64,000 nucleotides of DNA from a bacterium (GCA_021799485.1 JAJZAK010000008.1:5569-69568), one strand, 5' to 3'; numbered from the stretch's first letter, positions 12,251 to 21,592 are shown. Translations and numbers: made by a program. The notes: generated by a model not told the origin, from the letters alone.

Positions 12251-12352
12251 CCCGTTTCCCCGCCATTCGCTAAAATCGACCGCATCGGCCATGTGCAAGA
12301 GGGCAGCCCGTCGTCGGAACGAACGGATGTGGCCAATTTGGCCATCGCCACG

Positions 12353-13141
12353 ATGAACCCTCAACGCCTCCCCCTCATCGCCGCCAACTGGAAAATGCAT
12401 TTGGGATTGGCCGACGCGGCCAAACTCGCGCGCGAGATTCGAGAGGGCGTGGGCGCGGGGGATGCCGAGGCCGCTCTCTGCGTTCCCTTTACGGCCCTGG
12501 CCGTCGTGGCCGAGATTCTCAAGGGAAGCCCCGTCAGGCTCGGGGCGCAAAATCTTCATTGGGAGCCCCAAGGAGCCTTTACGGGAGAGATTTCGGCCGC
12601 CCAACTGGCCGACGCGGGGTGCCGCTACGTGATCGTGGGGCATAGCGAACGGCGCCGTCTTTTCGGCGAGACGAACGCCATCGTCGCGAAAAAGCTCGCC
12701 GCGGCGCTTGCCGCGGGCCTTCTGCCGATCCTCTGCGTGGGAGAAACCCTGGAGGAGCGCGAAAGCCAGAGGACGTGGGGGGTGCTCGCCGAGCAATTCC
12801 GCGCCGCCCTCAAGGACCTGCCGCCGGTCGAGGCGGCCGAGATCACGCTGGCCTACGAGCCCGTCTGGGCGATCGGGACCGGCAAAACCGCCTCCCCCTC
12901 CCAGGCCGAGGAAGCCCATGCTTTCATCCGCAAGCTTGCCTCCCAGGCCCACGGCGAGGGCTTCGCGTCGGCCCTGCGCATCCTTTATGGCGGCTCGGTC
13001 AAGGCCGACAACATCGACGCCCTCATGGCCCAGCCGGATGTCGACGGCGCCCTGGTCGGCGGGGAGAGCCTCAAGCCGATCTCTTTCCTCCGCATTGTCC
13101 ATTACAAGACCCTCGCGGACGCCGGAACACGGAGGCCCTGA
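12353..13141 (+). CDS. tpiA: triosephosphate isomerase. First gene of the BMC cluster
   Basis: NWKM (Lys), GHSERR (His) and AYEPVWAIGTG (Glu) catalytic motifs. Confidence 0.9.
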   Translation: MNPQRLPLIAANWKMHLGLADAAKLAREIREGVGAGDAEAALCVPFTALAVVAEILKGSPVRLGAQNLHWEPQGAFTGEISAAQLADAGCRYVIVGHSERRRLFGETNAIVAKKLAAALAAGLLPILCVGETLEERESQRTWGVLAEQFRAALKDLPPVEAAEITLAYEPVWAIGTGKTASPSQAEEAHAFIRKLASQAHGEGFASALRILYGGSVKADNIDALMAQPDVDGALVGGESLKPISFLRIVHYKTLADAGTRRP

Positions 13142-13779
13142 TGGACCAGGACCCCGAACTCGCCAGGCGCATCACCGCGGAAATCGTCTCGCGCATGGAG
13201 CGCTCGAAGACCGCGATCCCCGTCGGGGTTTCGAACCGCCACGTCCACTTCCGGCAGGAGGACTTCGACGTCCTCTTCGGCAAGGGCGCGGCGGTGCGTA
13301 AATTCAAGCAGGTCAAGCAGCCCGGCTTCTACGCCTGCTACGAGACCGTGGACATCGAGGGGCCCAAAGGCGCCATTAAAAACGTCCGCCTCGTGGCGCC
13401 CCACCGCTCCAAGACACAAATTGAGATTTCGCAGACCGACGCCCAGGCCCTGGGCCTGCGGCCTCCGATCCGCGACTCGGGGGATCTCGCGGGCTCCTCC
13501 CGCGTGCGCGTGATCGGCCCCAAGGGCTCTCTTGAGATCAAGGAAGGCCTCATCGTCGCGCGGCGCCACATCCATTTCCACCCGCTCGAGGCCAAGGCCA
13601 TGGGCATCCATGACGGCGAGAGCGTTCGCGTGCGCGCCGGGACGAAGGGGCCGCGCGAACTCGTCTTCGAGCAGGTGCTCTGCCGCGTCTCGGACAAGTT
13701 CAGCCTTGAGTTCCACGTCGACACCGACGAGGCCAACGCCGCCTGGATCCGGAGCGGCGACGAGGTCCGCATCGTCTGA
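13141..13779 (+). CDS. pduL: phosphate acyltransferase PduL (BMC-associated phosphotransacylase)
   Basis: Two PduL repeats with PVGVSNRHVHF and RRHIHFHP metal-site motifs. N-terminal amphipathic helix (ELARRITAEIVSRM). Confidence 0.85.
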   Translation: MDQDPELARRITAEIVSRMERSKTAIPVGVSNRHVHFRQEDFDVLFGKGAAVRKFKQVKQPGFYACYETVDIEGPKGAIKNVRLVAPHRSKTQIEISQTDAQALGLRPPIRDSGDLAGSSRVRVIGPKGSLEIKEGLIVARRHIHFHPLEAKAMGIHDGESVRVRAGTKGPRELVFEQVLCRVSDKFSLEFHVDTDEANAAWIRSGDEVRIV

Positions 13780-13816
13780 TTTCCATGTCGCAACAAGCTA
13801 AGCCAAGGAGATAACC

Positions 13817-14116
13817 ATGTACGCACTCGGCATGATCGAAACAAGAGGCCTCGTCGCCTGCGTCGAGGCCGCGGACGCCGCCGTCAAGGCCGCGGACGTG
13901 AGGCTTGTCGGCTACGAGAAGGTCGGAACGGGCCTCGTGACCATCCTCTTCCGGGGCGAGGTCGCGGCCTGCAAGGCTTCCTGCGACGCCGGCGCCGCCG
14001 CCGCGCAGAAAGTGGGAGAGCTCATCGCCGTCCATGTGATCCCGCAGCCTCACCCGGACCTCGAGGGGAAGATGCCCATTTCCCTTCCCGAGACCTTAAG
14101 CCGCAACAAGAGATAA
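13817..14116 (+). CDS. BMC shell protein, hexamer-forming (BMC-H, PduA/EutM family)
   Basis: [26 protein letters not shown]...VGYEKVG.GLVT...GEVAACKAS is the canonical BMC domain. Confidence 0.9.
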
Positions 14117-14147
14117 CGGAACCGGCAACGGACCGTTTCTTCCTGCA

Positions 14148-14468
14148 ATGATCTTCGCGCGCGTGACGGGAACAGTCGTCTGCACCCTGAAAGACGAGAA
14201 GCTCGTGGGCTTCAAGCTTCTTCTCGTCCAGCCCGTCGACCTCAAAAATGAGCCCCGGGGCAACCCTCTGGTGGCGGTCGACACGGTGGGCGCGGGGGAG
14301 GGGGAACTCGTCCTCGTCGTCCAGGGCTCCTCCGCGCGCCAGACCGTCCGGACGCAGGAACGCCCCGTGGACGCCTCCATCTTCGCCATCATCGACTCGG
14401 TCGAGGAGGGAGGCCGGCGGGTCTTTGAGAAGGCCTCCGACGCCCAGCCGGCAAGGAACTCCCGTTGA
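14148..14468 (+). CDS. BMC vertex protein (BMC-P, EutN/PduN/CcmL family)
   Basis: MIFARVTGTVVCT...LLLVQP...VAVDTVGAG.GELVLVVQGSSAR matches the EutN/CcmL fold. Confidence 0.85.
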   Translation: MIFARVTGTVVCTLKDEKLVGFKLLLVQPVDLKNEPRGNPLVAVDTVGAGEGELVLVVQGSSARQTVRTQERPVDASIFAIIDSVEEGGRRVFEKASDAQPARNSR

Positions 14469-15910
14469 GCATGGCCCCGGAGGATCTGGCGAACGTCGTC
14501 GCGCAAGTCCTTGATCGCCTCAAGGCCCAGGGCACGATGAACCCCTCCTGGGGCGCGGCGGGGAACGCGGCTCGCGACTCCGACGTCGTCTTTCCAAGCG
14601 TCAATGACGCCGTCAAGGCCGCCCGCGCCGCCCAGGAGGAGTTCCAGCGCCTGGGCCTTGAGGCGCGGCGCAAGATTATCGACGCCATGCGAAAGGCCGC
14701 GATCGCCAACGCCGAGCGCCTGGCGCGTATGGCCGCCGAGGAGACGGGGATGGGACGCGCGGAGGACAAGGCCCAGAAAAACCTTCTCTGCGCCCTAAGG
14801 ACGCCCGGCGTCGAGGACCTGGAGTCCCGCGCTTACACGGGAGACAAGGGCCTCACCTTGGTCGAATACGCCCCCTTCGGGGTCGTCGCGGCCGTCACCC
14901 CCTCGACGAACCCCGGCGCGACCGTCATCAACAACTCGATTTCGATCCTCTCGGCTGGAAACGCCGTCGTCTTCTCGCCGCATCCGGCCGCGGCGAAATG
15001 CTCGACCGAGGCGATGCGGATCCTGAGCGCGGCCGCCGTCCAGGCCGGCGCGCCGCCCGACCTCATGGTCACGGTCTCCCCCGCGTCCCAGGAGACGACG
15101 AAGGCCCTTTTGGCCCACCCGGACGTGCGCGTGAATCTCGTGACCGGCGGCCCCGCCATCGTCAAGGTCGCGATGACGGTCGGCAAAACCTGCAAAACGA
15201 TCGCGGCGGGGCCGGGCAACCCCCCGGCGGTGGTGGACGAAACCGCGAATTTCCCGCAATGCGCCTCGGACATCATCTTCGGCGCCTCTTTCGACAACAA
15301 CGTCCTGTGCACCGCGGAGAAGGAGACGATCGTCGTCGAGCCCGCCTGGAGCCGGTTTCTGGAATGCATGCGCCGGGACGCGCGCGCCTTCGAGCTCTCC
15401 TCCGCCCAGCTTGACGCCTTGACGAAGCTTGTCATCGTCGAAGGGGGCCGCGGCTGCAAGGACCCCCGGCTCAACCGGGAGTACGTCGGCAAGGACGCCG
15501 CCTACATCGCGAAAGGAATAGGCCTTGCGGTCCCGCCGCAGACCAAGCTCCTCTGGGCCCAGGTCCCCAACGATCACCCGCTCGTCTGGACCGAGCAATT
15601 GATGCCGGTCATGCCCGTGACCAGGGTTCCCGACGTCGATTCCGCGATCGAACTCGCCTACGCGGCCGAGGGGGAGAACCACCACACGGCCTCCATGCAC
15701 TCGACCCATGTCGGCAATCTGACCCGCATGGGCCGGCGCATGCAGTGCTCGATTTACGTCAAGAACGCGCCGAACCTCTACGGGCTCGGCATGGGCGAGG
15801 GCTACGCCTCCATGTCGATCGGGACTCCGACGGGGGACGGGCTCACGAAAGCCATGCACTTCGCCCGGCCGCTCCACTGCAGCCTGGTCGGCTACTTCAG
15901 GATCGCCTAA
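14465..15910 (+). CDS. CoA-acylating aldehyde dehydrogenase (PduP/EutE type)
   Basis: Active-site region SFDNNVLCTAEKE matches the PduP catalytic-Cys motif. N-terminal helix NVVAQVLDRLKAQ resembles an encapsulation peptide. Confidence 0.9.
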   Translation: MSMAPEDLANVVAQVLDRLKAQGTMNPSWGAAGNAARDSDVVFPSVNDAVKAARAAQEEFQRLGLEARRKIIDAMRKAAIANAERLARMAAEETGMGRAEDKAQKNLLCALRTPGVEDLESRAYTGDKGLTLVEYAPFGVVAAVTPSTNPGATVINNSISILSAGNAVVFSPHPAAAKCSTEAMRILSAAAVQAGAPPDLMVTVSPASQETTKALLAHPDVRVNLVTGGPAIVKVAMTVGKTCKTIAAGPGNPPAVVDETANFPQCASDIIFGASFDNNVLCTAEKETIVVEPAWSRFLECMRRDARAFELSSAQLDALTKLVIVEGGRGCKDPRLNREYVGKDAAYIAKGIGLAVPPQTKLLWAQVPNDHPLVWTEQLMPVMPVTRVPDVDSAIELAYAAEGENHHTASMHSTHVGNLTRMGRRMQCSIYVKNAPNLYGLGMGEGYASMSIGTPTGDGLTKAMHFARPLHCSLVGYFRIA

Positions 15911-15930
15911 TCAATCACAAGGAACTTCCC

Positions 15931-16482
15931 ATGCAAGCTCAACTCGCCGTCGGACTTCTGGAGACCTCCTCGATCGCCAAGGGGATCGAGGCGTCGGACG
16001 CCATGTGCAAGATGGCCTCGGTGTCCCTCGTCAAGACAGCCGTCATCGCCCGCGGGAAATACACGATTCTCATCTCGGGTCCCGTGGGGGAAGTCGAAAG
16101 CTCGCTTCGCGCCGGCCGCGAAATCGCGGGCAAAACGAAGATCGACGAAGTCATCATCCGCAACGTCCATTCCCAGGTCCTGGAGGCCTTGGAGAAGCGC
16201 CGTCCCGTCGAAAGCCTCGGCGCCGTCGGGATCATCGAGACCAAGGAGGCGATCTCGACCGTCATGGCCGCGGACGCCGCCGCGAAGGCCGCGCGCGTCC
16301 ATCTCTTGGAGGTCAAGACCGTCGTGGGCGGCGGCAAGGGCTACGTCACGATGACGGCCGACGTGGGCGCCGTCCGGTCCGCCGTCGCGGCCGGGATTTC
16401 GATTTTGCCCGAGGGGATGCTCGTCTCCCACGTCGTCATCCCCCAGGCCCACGAGCAGCTGTTGAAGACCATCGCCCGATGA
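15931..16482 (+). CDS. tandem-BMC-domain shell protein (BMC-T, PduT-like)
   Basis: About 184 aa holding two BMC domains (LAVGLLETSSIAKGIEASDAM... and LGAVGIIETKEAISTVMAADAAAKAA...). Confidence 0.85.
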   Translation: MQAQLAVGLLETSSIAKGIEASDAMCKMASVSLVKTAVIARGKYTILISGPVGEVESSLRAGREIAGKTKIDEVIIRNVHSQVLEALEKRRPVESLGAVGIIETKEAISTVMAADAAAKAARVHLLEVKTVVGGGKGYVTMTADVGAVRSAVAAGISILPEGMLVSHVVIPQAHEQLLKTIAR

Positions 16483-16961
16483 AGATTGTCGTCGGGTCGG
16501 ACCACGGGGGTTTCGCCGCCAAGGAATTCGCCAAGAAGAGGCTCCAGGCCGCGGGCCACGAAGTGGCGGATTTCGGGTGCCACTCGCCCGAGGCCGTCGA
16601 CTTCCCCGACGTGGCCCTTTTGGTCGGAGAGGCCGTGGCCTCGGGCGAATTCGAGAAGGGAGTCCTTTTAGACGGATTCGGCGGGGCCGTGGCTCTCGCG
16701 GCCAATAAGGTTCCCGGCGTCCGGGCCGTCGCGGCCTATAACTCCGTCTCCGCGCGCTTCGCGGCGGCCCACGACAACGCGAACATCCTCTGTCTCGGCG
16801 GGAAGACCCACGGCGAGGCGGCCTGGGACGAGATGCTGGAGGTCTTTTTCAAGACGCCGTTCGAAGGCGGCCGCCATGAGCGCCGGATCGCCAAGATCTC
16901 CCAGATCGAGCATAAATATTCGCCGCTCGCGGCCGACTGCGGCTGCCGGGGAGGCGCATAA
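16479..16961 (+). CDS. rpiB: ribose-5-phosphate isomerase B family (RpiB/LacAB)
   Basis: MKIVVGSDHGGF, ANKVPGVRAV, AHDNANIL and FEGGRHERRI align with RpiB throughout. The position of the E. coli catalytic Cys (CGTG) reads DGFG here. Confidence 0.8.
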   Translation: MKIVVGSDHGGFAAKEFAKKRLQAAGHEVADFGCHSPEAVDFPDVALLVGEAVASGEFEKGVLLDGFGGAVALAANKVPGVRAVAAYNSVSARFAAAHDNANILCLGGKTHGEAAWDEMLEVFFKTPFEGGRHERRIAKISQIEHKYSPLAADCGCRGGA

Positions 16962-16962
16962 C

Positions 16963-17256
16963 GTGCGTCTCGCGCGGATTTTAGGACGAGTCTTCTGCAC
17001 GAGGCAGGAGCCGTCGATCGAGGGGAAAAAGCTCCTCCTGATCCAGCCTCTAAATTGGGAGGACGAGTCGCCGGCGGGCCCCGCCATCGTCGCCGCGGAC
17101 GCCGTCGGCGCCGGAGCGGCGGAAAAGGTCTTCTGGGTGGCCGCGCGCGAGGCGGCCGTCGCCTTCGAGGACGTTCCTCCCGTCGACGCGGCCGTCGTCG
17201 GGATCGTGGACGGCCGCCGCGTCAAGAATTTCAGGACCGCCGGAGGCGCGGGATAG
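16963..17256 (+). CDS. BMC vertex protein (BMC-P) paralog 2
   Basis: GTG start 1 nt after the rpiB stop, with GGAGG 9 nt upstream. VRLARILGRVFCT...LLLIQP...VAADAVGAG fits the EutN/CcmL pattern. Confidence 0.75.
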   Translation: MRLARILGRVFCTRQEPSIEGKKLLLIQPLNWEDESPAGPAIVAADAVGAGAAEKVFWVAAREAAVAFEDVPPVDAAVVGIVDGRRVKNFRTAGGAG

Positions 17257-17258
17257 CC

Positions 17259-17555
17259 GTGTTCATCGCGAGCGTCGTGGGAAACGTCTGGGGAACGCGC
17301 AAGCATCCTTCGATGGAAAAACGCCGGCTGCTTCTCGTCCAACCAATCGACCCCTTGACGGAAAAGCCGCTGGGCGCCGCCGTCATGGCGATCGACGGCG
17401 GCGTCGAATCGGGTCCCGGAAGCGTCGTCTTGGTCATGGACGAGGGCAACGGCGCACGGCAGATTTTGGGCGACCGGAGGGCTCCGGTCCGCACCGTCGT
17501 CTGCGGCATCGTCGACAGAGTCGTGTCGGGGGGGACAGCCAAGCGCTATGAGTGA
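17259..17555 (+). CDS. BMC vertex protein (BMC-P) paralog 3
   Basis: GTG start 2 nt after the previous stop. [13 protein letters not shown]...LLLVQP...[10 protein letters not shown] fits the EutN/CcmL pattern. Confidence 0.7.
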
Positions 17556-18594
17556 GCCTGATATCAGAAAAATCGTCGAGGAGATCGTGGGCGTCCTCCA
17601 CAAGAGGGGCTATCTCGCCGGCCCAGATTCGGCATCCTCATCGAAGACCGATTGGCGAGACGGCGAGGGGTCGCTCAAGCCGCTGGAGAACGGCGCCCGG
17701 GCCACCGTCGGGACCGCCGGCAAGGTCTTCTCGGGCGATTGGCGCAAGACCCCGGCGGCGCCGTCGAGGGCCGTCTCTCCAACGGCCTCGTCGCCTTCCG
17801 GCGACGAGGATCACTCCGGATCCGACGCCTCCTGCCCTCACTGCGACAAAGTGTCGAGCTTGAGCGAAAAGGATTTGAAGGAATTGGGCCTCGACCGCAT
17901 CGCCGTCTGCAAGCCGGCGAAAAGCCGCTCTCCCATCGCGCGGCTCGTCGACCACACTCTCTTGAAGCCCAACGCGACCCAGGAGGAGATCGCGAAGCTC
18001 TGCGAGGAGGCCAAGACCTACTGCTTCGCCTCCGTCTGCATTCCTCCGAGCTATGTTCCGCTTTCCGCAAGGCTCCTGACGGGCAGCGGCGTCAAGGTCT
18101 GCACGGTGATCGGCTTTCCGCTCGGCTCCACCACCTCGACCGTCAAGGCCGTCGAGGCGCGCGACGCGATCGCGGGAGGCGCCGAGGAAATCGACATGGT
18201 GCTCAATATCGGCGCCTTGAAGTCCGGCAACGACGCCTTGGTCCTCTCCGATATCCGGGCCGTTCGGGAAGCGACGCGCGGACGCGTGCTCAAGGTGATT
18301 CTTGAAACCTCGCTTTTGTCCCAGGACGAGAAGGTTCGCGCCTGTCTCCTCTCGAAAAAGGCCGGCGCCGACTTCGTCAAGACCTCGACGGGCTTTGGCG
18401 GGGGCGGAGCGACCGTCGAGGATATCCGGCTCATGCGCGAGACCGTCGGCCCCTTGATGGGGGTCAAGGCCTCGGGCGGCATCCGGTCGGCCGACGCGGC
18501 CGAGGCCATGGTGCGCGCCGGGGCGACAAGGCTCGGAACCTCGGCAAGCGTCGCCATCGTCACCGGTTCGGAGCCGGCCTCGGGGAAATATTAG
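17548..18594 (+). CDS. deoC: deoxyribose-phosphate aldolase (DERA/DeoC, class I) with a 120-aa N-terminal extension
   Basis: DERA core [16 protein letters not shown]...CIPPSYV...[10 protein letters not shown]...KVILET...DFVKTSTGF (Schiff-base Lys). Preceded by an amphipathic helix ([18 protein letters not shown]) and a Ser/Pro/Gly-rich linker. Confidence 0.85.
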
Positions 18595-18616
18595 GGCTTG
18601 CGCCACGATCATATGA

Positions 18617-18943
18617 GTGATCACGATCATGTCCAAAAATAAGCCCGCCAAATTCAAGCTCACGATCGACTTCCAATGCGGCTCCTGCGGCGCCCTCATC
18701 CACCAGGCGCCTGGAACCTCGCCGGAAAAAACGGTCGCCCCCAAATTCTGCCCTCGATGCGGGGCGGGCATGGAGCGCTTCTGCCTCGCCTGCCGCAAGA
18801 AGGCGGACATGTTTTTCGAGGAGTGGTGGCCGGAGGACGATGAATGCGTGCGGACCTACAGCCCCGCCAAGCGCTGCGGCTCGTGCGGGGCGATCCTCGA
18901 GCAGGAGAAAAAGATGGACGAGGGCGATTGGAGCGAGGCATAA
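18617..18943 (+). CDS. small four-CxxC zinc-ribbon protein of unknown function inside the BMC locus
   Basis: CGSC, CPRC, CLAC and CGSC motifs; about 105 aa. The start may instead be at MSKNKP (18629). Confidence 0.5.
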
Positions 18944-18957
18944 AAAAGGAGGCTCTT

Positions 18958-19263
18958 ATGGCGGAAGTTTCCGTTCGTGAGGCCCTGGGGCTCGTCGAGA
19001 CCAAGGGCTTCGTCGGGATGATTGAGGCGTCGGACGCGATGGCCAAGGCGGCCAAGGTCCGGCTCCTGGGATACGAGAAGATCGGCTCGGGGCTCGTCAC
19101 CACCCTGTGCCGCGGAGAAGTCGGAGCGGTGCGGGCAGCCATCGACGCGGCCGCGGCCGCGGCCCAGAAAGTGGGCGAACTCGTCAGCGTCCATGTGATT
19201 CCTCGCCCGCACGACGATTTGGAGAAGTATCTCGACCAAATCTCGATCAAGATCGCGCGCTAA
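18958..19263 (+). CDS. BMC shell protein, hexamer-forming (BMC-H) paralog 2
   Basis: [25 protein letters not shown]...[11 protein letters not shown]...[13 protein letters not shown] is the canonical BMC domain. AAGGAGG RBS upstream. Confidence 0.9.
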
Positions 19264-19299
19264 GACGTCGTTGAGCGCAGGCGCCGCCCATTCATCGCG

Positions 19300-19596
19300 A
19301 TGCTGACCCGCGACGATCTTATCGATCTGATCGTCTCCCAGCTCACGCCGCTCAAGGCCGGGAATTCCGCGCCCGCCCCGTCCACGCCCGGCGATAGGAG
19401 GACGGCGGACATGGGCAAGCAAAAAGCGGGAAAAACCTCCGACGGCCCCGCCGGGAGGATCTTCGTTTCGGAATATGAGATCAAGAAGCTGCTCAAGCCG
19501 GGCGCCAAGGAGATTCGACTGCCGGCTGGAGCCATCGTGAGCCCCCTGGCCGCGGACTGGCTGACCCTCCAGGGCGTTCGCATCGTGCGCCCATGA
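19300..19596 (+). CDS. small BMC-locus protein with an N-terminal encapsulation-peptide-like helix, a linker and a conserved C-terminal mini-domain
   Basis: MLTRDDLIDLIVSQLTPLKAG amphipathic helix, low-complexity linker, then RIFVSEYEIKKLLKPGAKEIRLPAGAIVSPLAADWL. Confidence 0.45.
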   Translation: MLTRDDLIDLIVSQLTPLKAGNSAPAPSTPGDRRTADMGKQKAGKTSDGPAGRIFVSEYEIKKLLKPGAKEIRLPAGAIVSPLAADWLTLQGVRIVRP

Positions 19597-20105
19597 GCTC
19601 CTTGCCGCCGGAAAAAGCCCTGGGCATCTGGACCGACCTCGAAGCCGTTTTCAGCGTTATCTCCGATTCAGCCCTCAAACCGCCCGAGCGCGCCTGTCTC
19701 CCGACAGCGCCGGAGTCGTCGCCCCCCGCCGCGAAATCCGCCTCCCGAAGCCCGGGAACATCCCTGCTCGCCTTCATTCGAACCGCCAAGAGCGCGGCCG
19801 CGAAAGAGCGCTTGGCTTCTCTTCTCAAGACTCTCTCCTCCGGCGCGACCAAGAGCCCCCTCGCGATCGAGGAATGCCTTGATCGGACGGTGATGGAGGG
19901 AGAGGACCCCTTCGCCGTCGCGGCGGAAGCGAAGGCGGCCGGCGCGGATCTCGCCGTCGTCATTCCAGACGGCCTCAACGCCGATTGGCTCAAGGTTCTC
20001 GCGGCGGCCTTGCGCGCCACGGGCATCGCCCGGCACCAGATCGACGCCTTCTCCGCGGGACGCAAGGCCGCCGTCATCGAAATCATCTTTAAGCTTCAAT
20101 TCTAA
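19593..20105 (+). CDS. hypothetical protein
   Basis: 170-aa ORF overlapping the upstream gene by 4 bp. Confidence 0.35.
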   Translation: MSSLPPEKALGIWTDLEAVFSVISDSALKPPERACLPTAPESSPPAAKSASRSPGTSLLAFIRTAKSAAAKERLASLLKTLSSGATKSPLAIEECLDRTVMEGEDPFAVAAEAKAAGADLAVVIPDGLNADWLKVLAAALRATGIARHQIDAFSAGRKAAVIEIIFKLQF

Positions 20106-20107
20106 TT

Positions 20108-21592
20108 TTGCCAAGCCCAAAGTCGAGCGCTCCCGTGACTTCGCCGAGCTGGCTTCTCAAGCCCGCGCCGTCAAGCCGCGATCCTCTCCGCCATCTGCTT
20201 TTCATCAAGGGAAGCCTCAAGGACATCTCCGCTCTCGTGGCGAAGATGGGCGCCCTCTGCGGCAGGCCCGACTCCTCGTCCTGCCCGGAGGGCTTCGATT
20301 ACAAGCTCTACCTCCATCAGCTCGACGAACGCGCGCGCCGGATGATCCTCGCGGCCCTGGAGGACATCTCTCCGGCGCCTCGAAAAAGCCCTCGGCCCTC
20401 TCGCGCCGATCCGGACATCCCCGCCGGGCCTGGTCCCAGGCGCTTCGACTCGGGCCAGACCTTCGACGCCTTTTGCGTGGGCCCCTCCAACCGCTTGGCT
20501 TTCGCCGCGGCCCGAGAGGCGGCCGCCTCTCCGGGAATGCTGCACAACCCCCTCGTCATCCGGGGACCGTCCTCCTCCGGCAAGACCCATCTTCTCAACG
20601 CCATCATGGGGGAAGTCGAGCGCCGCTGGGGGCCCGGAAGCGCGATGTTCGTCGGCGCCCTCGATCTCGAGCTCGGTGCGGCAGGGGCCTTGCGCGCGGG
20701 AAAAGCAGAGGCCTTCGGCGCGGCCTTCCGTTCGCGGCGCGCTCTTCTCATCGACGACGCCCATCTCCTGGGGCCTGGAACGGGCGCGCGGCTTGCGGCG
20801 GGAATCGCCGCCGACTACTGCCGCCGCGGCCTCCAGGTCGCCGTCGCGGCGGATTCGGATCTCATGGGCCGGCAAGCCAATGAGTTGACGGCGCCCTCCG
20901 GAGATCTGGCGCGGGAAGTCGCGGCCTCCCCGCCTTCGGGAAAGCTCCTCTTCGCGGCCGCGGACCGTTTTTTCAGCCGCAACGGACTCCTTGTCGAGCC
21001 CGAGGCGCTTGAGGCCATGCTCTCGGAGCTCCCGGATGATGGAGGATTCCCCGTCCTTTATCCCTGGCTCAGAAGGATCGGGGCCTTGCGGCGAATCGGC
21101 TTCTCGAGCGCTTTCGATTTATCCCTGGAACCGCTCAAGGCGGCGGGCCTTCTCGACGCGGGAGCCGCGCGCGACAGCGGAAAGCCGCGACGCCTCGCCT
21201 TCTTCTATCCCGAAAGCCTAAAGGCCGGCGCCGGGGCGTCCTTGGACCGGTTTTTGGCGGAGGGCCGCCGACGGCCCCAGTTGCCCCGCTACGAGCCCGT
21301 CTTGGCGCGCCCGTATCCCGAGATGAACGCTCCGGGAAAAGACGGCCTCCTCGCCGCGACCGCCCGCGCGCGCTTCTCCTGCGACGCCGCCGTCGTCGCG
21401 GACGGCGACGCCGACGACTGGATCGCCGCGGCGAGAAGCCCCCGCGCGCGCCGCCTCCTCTCGGCTATCGCCGGCCAGGGCCTGGCCTGCGCGGCGCTCC
21501 CGGCGAACCAAGAGTCGGAGCCGGACGCCTATCTCGCGGCTCACGCGGATCTTCTCCACGCCTTTTTTCATCATTATGACGCAAACCCTTAA
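20108..21592 (+). CDS. DnaA/Hda-like AAA+ ATPase domain protein (DnaA paralog lacking domain IV)
   Basis: TFDAFCVGPSNRLAFAAAREAA...NPLVIRGPSSSGKTHLLNAI and LLIDDAHLL match the DnaA/Hda Walker A and B regions. Much longer than Hda. Confidence 0.55.
   Translation: MPSPKSSAPVTSPSWLLKPAPSSRDPLRHLLFIKGSLKDISALVAKMGALCGRPDSSSCPEGFDYKLYLHQLDERARRMILAALEDISPAPRKSPRPSRADPDIPAGPGPRRFDSGQTFDAFCVGPSNRLAFAAAREAAASPGMLHNPLVIRGPSSSGKTHLLNAIMGEVERRWGPGSAMFVGALDLELGAAGALRAGKAEAFGAAFRSRRALLIDDAHLLGPGTGARLAAGIAADYCRRGLQVAVAADSDLMGRQANELTAPSGDLAREVAASPPSGKLLFAAADRFFSRNGLLVEPEALEAMLSELPDDGGFPVLYPWLRRIGALRRIGFSSAFDLSLEPLKAAGLLDAGAARDSGKPRRLAFFYPESLKAGAGASLDRFLAEGRRRPQLPRYEPVLARPYPEMNAPGKDGLLAATARARFSCDAAVVADGDADDWIAAARSPRARRLLSAIAGQGLACAALPANQESEPDAYLAAHADLLHAFFHHYDANP

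Follow-up and report, generated by a model that had tools for sequence, protein, structure and literature searches.

A stretch of 64,000 nucleotides of bacterial DNA (GCA_021799485.1 JAJZAK010000008.1:5569-69568; hereafter the window, to whose proteins all residue numbers refer) contains at 12.3-19.6 kb, on the + strand, a tightly packed bacterial microcompartment (BMC) operon. Three of its enzymes, i.e. the phosphotransacylase (PTAC) PduL, an acylating aldehyde dehydrogenase (AldDH) and the aldolase DERA, begin with helices that are conserved and are specific to the BMC versions of these enzymes. We read the locus as the operon of a sugar-phosphate-utilising (SPU; deoxyribose-phosphate) BMC and the three helices as encapsulation peptides (EPs), a joint reading to which we assign a probability of about 80%; we infer the targeting function from homology to tested peptides, in particular to residues 1-20 of EutE. 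A fourth protein, of 98 amino acids (aa), also begins with a helix, and is tentatively predicted to be a small adaptor between shell and cargo. An earlier reading of the DNA letters without database searches (the sequence-only reading) had quoted peptides from the starts of these four proteins, and they are found there as described, in PduL at residues 6-19, in AldDH at its very start, in DERA at residues 6-23 and in the 98-aa protein at residues 7-21.

Assignment of the open reading frames (ORFs) with Pfam and NCBIfam gave the gene order TPI, PduL, BMC-H, BMC-P, AldDH, BMC-T, RpiB, BMC-P, BMC-P, DERA, a zinc-ribbon protein, BMC-H and the 98-aa protein. The locus is read as SPU because DERA, AldDH, RpiB and a BMC-P triplet together form the SPU signature, as the passages that define this microcompartment in three surveys state (PMC4207490, Axen 2014; PMC8217296, Sutter 2021; PMC11585597). 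In the operon, DERA (PF01791/TIGR00126) is present as signature enzyme together with the acylating AldDH (PF00171), and BMC-H and BMC-T genes accompany the BMC-P triplet, the complete shell set being two BMC-H, one tandem BMC-T and three EutN_CcmL (BMC-P) genes. Neither a PduS homologue nor further BMC genes were found elsewhere within the 64-kb window. The closest homologues of the operon proteins all come from metagenome-assembled genomes of Elusimicrobia. A pattern search with the 98-aa family in species-representative genomes yielded 65 orthologous loci, from which the proteins used below were extracted; all 65 syntenic loci belong to Elusimicrobia, and their gene order is nearly invariant.

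Amphipathicity was measured as the highest hydrophobic moment of any 14-residue stretch within the first 32 residues and compared with shuffles of those residues, and family-profile moments were computed on alignments from the orthologous loci. For the single sequences, the moment is 0.63 in AldDH (p=0.002-0.004), 0.67 in DERA (p=0.019) and 0.61 in PduL (p=0.15), and it ranges from 0.17 to 0.53, without any significant value, in TPI, RpiB, the zinc-ribbon protein and the shell proteins. The family profiles give 0.70 for AldDH (p<0.0002), 0.65 for DERA (p=0.0016), 0.56 for PduL (p=0.036) and 0.30 for TPI (p=0.71), and the median 11-residue moments are 0.73, 0.73 and 0.69 in AldDH, DERA and PduL, 0.54 in the 98-aa protein and 0.38-0.56 in the shell proteins. 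The amphipathic character is solid for AldDH, DERA and PduL and marginal for the 98-aa protein; the sequence-only reading, which had ascribed amphipathic helices to all four, was clearly right about the three enzymes, and the fourth helix is real but weakly amphipathic. The consensus N-termini are MqxeEIAxIVxEVLKRLe in AldDH (39 loci), MrExeLrkiVEEVVrxLaxKGxLk in DERA and ..L..Ia.eI..RmeRSk in PduL (39 loci), and the helices of AldDH and DERA share the pattern (D/E)(D/E)(I/L)xxIVxEV(L/V)xxL. The helices are kept in 38-64 full-length orthologues from the 65 syntenic loci. Two of the checks that the sequence-only reading had proposed, secondary-structure prediction and conservation of the extensions in orthologous loci, both bore it out: AlphaFold2 models show helices at DERA residues 3-19 and at residues 4-13 of the 98-aa protein, and the extensions are kept in up to 65 Elusimicrobia loci with variable linkers after them.

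The position of the helices relative to the catalytic domains is also that of EPs. Terminal extensions that are not found in solved non-BMC homologues are present in PduL, of which the solved structure 5CUO aligns from residue 26 and the PTAC domain begins at residue 27, and in DERA, as judged from 31 structures (see below). In AldDH, the alignment of the syntenic orthologues shows a helix and a variable linker ahead of a conserved body, with 33-71 aa preceding a (V/L)(D/N)xAV motif in 38 orthologues, while DERA orthologues have 111-160 aa ahead of the barrel. An amphipathic helix of about 15-20 residues is seen in AldDH and DERA, and at the family level in PduL; a poorly conserved flexible linker is seen in DERA, AldDH and the 98-aa protein and is missing in PduL, whose helix abuts the PTAC domain with almost no linker. 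All these proteins lie in a BMC locus, and the peptides are conserved in orthologous loci. Furthermore, AldDH is 46% identical over its full length to E. coli EutE, and its helix aligns residue for residue with EutE 1-20 (MAPEDLANVVAQVLDRLKAQ versus MNQQDIEQVVKAVL--LKMQ). In Salmonella, deletion of EutE residues 2-21 leaves the protein in the cytosol and abolishes its encapsulation, and the EutE 1-20 peptide binds EutQ (PMC12487888).

The EP reading of PduL, AldDH and DERA is already published at the family level and is not new. According to the sections of the SPU survey that deal with targeting (Dwyer, Sutter & Kerfeld 2024, PMC11585597), every SPU-associated DERA is prolonged at its N-terminus by an extension with an amphipathic helix, which is missing from DERAs outside BMCs; EPs can be predicted there for all PTACs of SPU loci and for their AldDHs, at the N-terminus in every subtype except SPU6. 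The claim of the sequence-only reading that the aldolase too, and not only the dehydrogenase, is encapsulated is therefore probably correct but expected, since DERA is the SPU signature enzyme, as the metabolosome model requires, and the point is made in the same sections of that survey. The result for the three enzymes extends the published SPU picture to another lineage and adds little to it.

The other non-shell enzymes of the operon differ from these three. In 36 orthologues, TPI begins only a few residues ahead of the motif RxPLIAGNWKMH, with nothing conserved upstream, and a targeting peptide on TPI was rejected for want of a conserved extension. Because the orthologues start about 20 codons later than the GTG at 12293, the TPI start is probably the ATG at 12353 (MNPQRLPLIAANWKMH), and the GTG-start ORF is probably an over-call. 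A targeting peptide was likewise rejected for RpiB, as none is present in any of 50 orthologues, all of which start MK(I/L)V(I/V)GSDHGGF. Since TPI and RpiB are without an extension, the helices are specific, conserved features of four non-shell proteins; in the orthologous loci no conserved N-terminal extension was found on the shell proteins either. In the RpiB motif VLLDGFGG, the position equivalent to Cys66, the catalytic residue of E. coli RpiB, is Asp in 37 of 41 orthologues and Cys in four. It has been remarked in print that the ribose-phosphate isomerase (RPI) of SPU loci is possibly catalytically inactive, and the Asp of the window RpiB agrees with that.

The 98-aa protein deserves separate treatment. 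In its AlphaFold2 model, a helix at residues 4-13 (predicted local distance difference test, pLDDT, ~75) is followed by a disordered region at 14-50 (<50) and by a folded domain at 54-96 (78-88). The Ser/Pro/Gly-rich linker announced by the sequence-only reading is borne out, since residues 16-52 are disordered (pLDDT <50) and have a combined Ser, Pro, Gly, Ala and Thr fraction of 0.65; among the homologues, 33-70 aa precede an FxSE motif. The moment of the helix is 0.44 (p=0.22) in the single sequence and 0.40 (p=0.055) in the family profile. The N-terminal consensus is MLTrDDLiDxI.e.L, of which M1-D6 and D9 are invariant in 29 homologues, and D9 is kept in 54 of 55 genome loci. At these conserved positions the codons vary synonymously, with all six Leu codons used at position 2 and GAT and GAC used 22:32 for Asp9, which shows selection on the protein. 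The gene always stands at the operon end, adjoining the second BMC-H gene, which it follows directly in 63 of 65 loci; on a short metagenome contig of other origin (L068), too, a relative lies behind a BMC-H gene. The family is small: a profile search against 1.84 billion representative proteins found only 118 clusters, almost all of 51-160 aa and of the same three-part build. No enzyme or Pfam domain was found in the protein, which ends after the 45-aa domain, and there is no non-BMC homologue with which its extension could be compared. A search of the PDB with its sequence profile gave no match. A divergent subgroup (L055, L061, L064 and L065, together with P0205, P0225, P0231, P0234 and P0249) has an extra linker motif, GKWGF(H/F)V..P(F/Y)N.P.T(S/T)L.

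The C-terminal 45 residues recur in other BMC proteins. The window protein matches positions 161-205 of TIGR02536, an uncharacterised eut protein, with E=7e-5 (22.5 bits), and of the 111 members of the 98-aa family 82 have a match to the final 45 positions of this model, the best with E=2e-10. Membership in TIGR02536 itself was rejected for the 98-aa protein, given the partial coverage and a score of 22.5 bits against a membership cut-off of 152.6 bits. In a BMC locus with PduS and an adenosyltransferase (L069 629-1570), a PduL with an N-terminal peptide (P0270) carries a C-terminal copy of the domain. One of the 111 family members matches the EutQ model, at N-terminal positions 4-47, and the start of E. 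coli EutQ, MKKLITANDIREAHARGEQAMSVVLRASIITPEAREVADLLGFTITE, agrees in pattern with RIFVSEYEIKKLLKPGAKEIRLPAGAIVSPLAADWLTLQGVRIV. Alignment of the domain with EutQ residues 2-51 by hhalign covers 44-49 columns with a probability of 45-56% (P ~1-2e-4), and its score of 22.8 is reached by none of 200 column-shuffled controls (mean 8.8, maximum 17.8). The homology of the domain to EutQ is tentative. It matters because, in Salmonella, EutQ's N-terminal region is a shell-cargo linker, in which H1/H2 (9-41) binds the shell at the EutM/EutL interface and, after a flexible region, H3/H4 binds the cargo peptides EutC 1-20 and EutE 1-20 (PMC12487888). In addition, an AlphaFold screen predicted a complex of a TIGR02536 protein with EutL in Listeria (PMC13181095).

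The sequence-only reading had taken all four helices as marks of targeted cargo; by sequence criteria this suits PduL, AldDH and DERA, and is only partly supported for the 98-aa protein, which has no enzyme domain and a marginal helix. For these two reasons, and because its C-terminal domain occurs in other BMC structural or accessory proteins, we prefer the role of a small shell-cargo adaptor over that of plain cargo, though we rate both alike, at somewhat less than even odds. As ordinary encapsulated cargo or an accessory protein, it would be targeted to the interior by its helix, with the C-terminal domain in the lumen, e.g. for enzyme regulation or chaperoning. Its build of helix, disordered linker and folded domain is indeed that of a classic EP-bearing protein, the pattern D-D-L-I-D-L-I-V-x-x-L at its start lines up in register with the peptide of AldDH, the fusion of the domain to an enzyme, PduL, in L069 could mean a lumenal interaction module, and the homology to EutQ is weak. 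However, the domain is just 45 residues long and lacks a catalytic signature, the relatives of the domain in EutQ sit exactly at the shell-binding part, and the complex predicted for TIGR02536 is with a shell protein, EutL (PMC13181095). The 45-aa domain looks like a portable BMC-association module, and on the adaptor reading the 98-aa family might, a more doubtful step, consist of minimal shell-cargo tethers of the Elusimicrobia SPU BMC, each with an EP-like helix, a linker and a 45-aa putative shell-binding module. If so, the module of the EutQ N-terminus, the TIGR02536 C-terminus and some PduL C-termini would be a general portable shell-docking domain, the EutQ mechanism would extend to unrelated microcompartment types, and, once confirmed, the module would offer a compact docking tag for engineered compartments.

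The extension of DERA is more than a peptide and a spacer. DeoC/TIGR00126 begins at residues 130-133, and 31 solved DERAs (chains of 204-288 aa) align from residues ~107-140, most of them from 126-132; as the model and the structures start at about residue 129, the extension is ~128 aa long, so that the sequence-only reading was right about its presence and slightly short with 120 aa. It had also described the extension as a helix followed by a low-complexity linker; the composition agrees (Ser, Pro, Gly, Ala and Thr make up 0.60 of residues 24-96, against 0.43 of the barrel), but the description is incomplete, as near-invariant islands lie inside. In the AlphaFold2 model, built with 108 homologues, helix 3-19 has a pLDDT of 92-94, residues 25-95, including the GTAGKVF island, are below 50, two short helices at 97-103 and 107-112 reach 62-77, and the barrel follows from 129. 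Among the 108 sequences, V10, V14, L17 and G21 of the helix region are at least 90% conserved. In the first island, all sequences have G55 and K59, and A57, G58 and F61 are at least 90% conserved, as is W65 in a subset of 25 sequences. Nearer the barrel, within LK.LG.DRIAVC.P, R117 and C121 are invariant and G114 and P123 at least 90% conserved; an H...CPxC cluster stands ahead of this motif in most DERAs, and 38 of the 53 loci have CxxC. In the barrel, the catalytic D216, K249 and K278 never vary. Of 53 full-length DERA orthologues, 52 have the G[ST][AS]GK motif and 47 the N-terminal helix. The islands are conserved as much as the targeting helix or more. In a locus of a different lineage (L070, 244-1716), a 490-aa DERA has an EP-like start and an inserted domain of ~170 aa, after which come VTIGTAGKVF, the Cys cluster and a GADRIG motif as in the window family. 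The islands may be candidates for docking of RpiB (a DERA-RPI interface) or for a metal site. The proximal part of the extension shows a short likeness to the 98-aa C-terminal domain, G(R/K)xFxx(E/D)(Y/W), which is not significant, and homology between the two was rejected (hhalign probability <2%). In the three most divergent loci (L055, L057, L059), the DERAs are 235-258 aa long and seemingly lack the N-terminal helix, those of L055 and L057 beginning just ahead of the GTAGKVF motif; this reflects either true loss of the helix or a mis-picked start.

These islands raise the alternative that the extension serves chiefly as an arm for docking or regulation, involving RpiB, a metal or oligomerisation, and that targeting is a secondary or shared task of its first helix. 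The islands (GTAGKVF..W, the Cys/His cluster and LK.LG.DRIAVC.P) equal or exceed the helix in conservation and persist in the 490-aa DERA of L070, and the pLDDT of the helix is unusually high. Nevertheless, we consider this less likely than not: the DERA helix has the sequence pattern of the AldDH peptide, about 30 disordered and length-variable residues separate it from the rest, and the targeting sections of PMC11585597 treat it as an EP. The two roles are also not mutually exclusive. With the helix read as an EP, the aldolase still carries conserved motifs between helix and barrel that are worth following up, and these islands, together with the recurring 45-aa domain, are where the value of the present analysis lies.

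Several observations weigh against the picture given here. The PduL helix is not significant in the single sequence (p=0.15) and has no real linker before the catalytic domain. The N-terminal helix is missing from six of 53 DERA orthologues, which retain the GTAGK motif, and may therefore not be the sole targeting element. In the 98-aa protein, the helix is short and its amphipathicity does not reach significance (p=0.055-0.22), and a Foldseek search of the model of this protein against the PDB returned nothing below E=0.6. A hidden Markov model of the enterobacterial EutQ N-domain retrieved no 98-aa protein among 11,368 ORFs of the 65 loci (all E>1); with this negative search and a single EutQ-model match among the 111 members, the EutQ link rests on one profile-profile comparison. 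Moreover, the parts of EutQ come in the reverse order (domain, linker, helices) to those of the 98-aa protein. It could also be asked whether the helices are mere structural or oligomerisation elements, or chance amphipathic stretches, as such helices are common, the first internal helix of RpiB has a similar moment (median 0.58) and those of PduL and the 98-aa protein are individually not significant; but this is very improbable, being largely refuted by domain boundaries and conservation, since the extensions fall beyond the domains that solved homologues cover (PduL, DERA), are conserved across 39-65 loci beside unconserved linkers, are confined to non-shell proteins of the BMC operon, and include in AldDH a helix homologous to a tested EP, that of EutE.

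Taken together, the EP reading suggests the following model. AldDH would convert acetaldehyde to acetyl-CoA, and PduL would recycle the CoA. The helices of ~15-18 residues on PduL, AldDH and DERA would act as EPs, which would gather the enzymes into a common cargo core and attach the core to the shell. RpiB and TPI, as neither has a peptide, would need to enter by piggy-backing if they are encapsulated at all; in the SPU6 subtype, DERA and RPI have been shown to form a complex. The C-terminal 45-aa domain of the 98-aa protein would bind the shell, and the linker and helix ahead of it would lodge between the cargo peptides. The coordinates of all features are collected in Table 1.

Table 1. Genes of the operon in the window and their parts, with the evidence for each
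Feature	Position	Strand	Evidence
TPI, first gene of the operon, no targeting extension	12353-13141	+	Pfam TIM, residues 27-271 of the long ORF
PduL, whole gene	13141-13779	+	
PduL N-terminal extension, residues 1-25, amphipathic helix at ~6-21 (ELARRITAEIVSRMER)	13141-13215	+	PTAC start at residue 27, 5CUO from residue 26
PduL phosphotransacylase catalytic domain	13216-13779	+	PF06130 E=6e-70; 5CUO E=1e-50
BMC-H shell protein 1	13817-14116	+	PF00936 E=8.5e-28
BMC-P pentamer protein 1	14148-14468	+	PF03319 E=1.6e-33
AldDH, whole gene	14471-15910	+	ATG two codons inside a TTG ORF
AldDH encapsulation-peptide helix (predicted role), residues 1-18 from ATG 14471 (MAPEDLANVVAQVLDRLK)	14471-14524	+	Moment, profile moment, EutE alignment
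AldDH variable linker, residues 19-38	14525-14584	+	Conservation falls, gaps appear
Acylating AldDH catalytic body	14585-15910	+	PF00171 E=8e-35
BMC-T, tandem BMC-domain shell protein	15931-16482	+	PF00936, two stretches
RpiB-type isomerase, no N-terminal extension	16479-16961	+	PF02502, residues 3-140
Two BMC-P genes (~16963-17256 and ~17259-17555) completing the BMC-P triplet	16963-17555	+	PF03319 in both; tblastn positions
DERA, whole gene	17548-18594	+	
DERA N-terminal amphipathic helix, residues 3-19	17554-17604	+	AlphaFold2, moment, conservation
DERA extension island G55-T-A-G-K-V-F-x-x-x-W65	17710-17742	+	Conservation
DERA extension, proximal part, residues 88-123: H..CPHC cluster, two short helices	17809-17916	+	Conservation, AlphaFold2
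DERA TIM-barrel catalytic domain, residues 129-348	17932-18594	+	TIGR00126 E=1.4e-87, residues 130-338
108-aa double zinc-ribbon protein, four CxxC pairs, no helix extension	18617-18943	+	Weak zinc-ribbon matches
BMC-H shell protein 2	18958-19263	+	PF00936 E=1.6e-27
98-aa protein, whole ORF, no Pfam domain	19300-19596	+	
98-aa protein, conserved N-terminal segment (MLTRDDLIDLIVSQL), helix at residues 4-13	19300-19344	+	Conservation, AlphaFold2
98-aa protein, disordered Ala/Pro/Gly-rich linker, residues 16-52	19345-19455	+	pLDDT <50
98-aa protein, C-terminal 45-aa beta-alpha-beta-beta-alpha-beta domain, TIGR02536-C / EutQ-N-like	19456-19596	+	AlphaFold2, profiles

Some neighbouring genes were also noted. 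In most of the 65 loci, DERA and the second BMC-H are separated by the gene of the 108-aa zinc-ribbon protein, which belongs to no known family. Downstream of the operon lies a 170-aa ORF (19593-20105), overlapping the 98-aa gene at its stop codon; a Pfam search gave no domain in this ORF, its homologues occur only in the three closest loci (L001, L002, L028), and it may be a fast-evolving gene or no gene. It is followed by a DnaA-like AAA+ ATPase (20108-21592), in which only the Bac_DnaA ATPase domain matches. Such an ATPase is present in most of the Elusimicrobia loci, usually 1.5-2.4 kb past the 98-aa gene, and in the SPU-like locus L070 (3573-5579) it also comes after the 98-aa-like gene, with a T2SSE-type ATPase between. 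The DnaA-like protein could act in regulation or in positioning.

When compared with known systems, the operon is closest to the SPU loci, with which it shares DERA, AldDH, the RpiB-type isomerase, the BMC-P triplet, BMC-H and BMC-T, as well as the helix extension of DERA, the N-terminal peptides on AldDH and PTAC and an RPI without the catalytic Cys. As in the SPU1, SPU4 and SPU7 rows tabulated in PMC11585597, it has PTAC and TPI and lacks BMC-T(dp), which fits these subtypes; the absence of a peptide on the window TPI argues against SPU4, whose TPI carries one according to the same source. Unlike SPU6, for which its subtype descriptions give an RPI with a peptide and a ~75-aa linker and a DERA extension of 70 aa, the window has an RpiB without N-terminal peptide and a DERA extension of ~128 aa with extra conserved islands. 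Unlike most SPU loci, it has no PduS homologue within the window, and the main text of the survey makes no mention of the 98-aa and zinc-ribbon proteins.

For the 98-aa protein, the comparisons are with accessory proteins of other BMCs. Like residues 1-99 of EutQ, it combines a small domain, a flexible region and a helix part; unlike EutQ, it has no cupin (PF06249) acetate-kinase domain. TIGR02536 proteins (~207 aa) have C-terminal 45 residues homologous to its domain and a central domain of ~120 aa that the 98-aa protein lacks, and TIGR02536-like proteins of ~220 aa (P0264, P0265, P0269) also have an EP-like N-terminal helix, e.g. MDQEQLIEKVTRELVRRLG, and carry the 45-aa domain at their end. 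PduM and the PduB N-terminus (PMC12108088) would resemble it by role, with no sequence similarity expected, as non-enzymatic, low-abundance proteins with an N-terminal signal needed for core-shell coupling; PduB, unlike the 98-aa protein, is itself a shell protein. The peptides of the three enzymes, on the other hand, correspond to those of EutE and EutC in the Eut system and of PduP, PduD and PduL in the Pdu system, which the aldehyde dehydrogenase, the signature enzyme and the phosphotransacylase carry at their N-termini as amphipathic helices of ~18-20 residues. The window system, known here from sequence and models, differs from both in that its signature enzyme is a single-chain class I aldolase rather than a B12 enzyme, and in that the peptide of this enzyme, DERA, precedes a long, multi-part extension.

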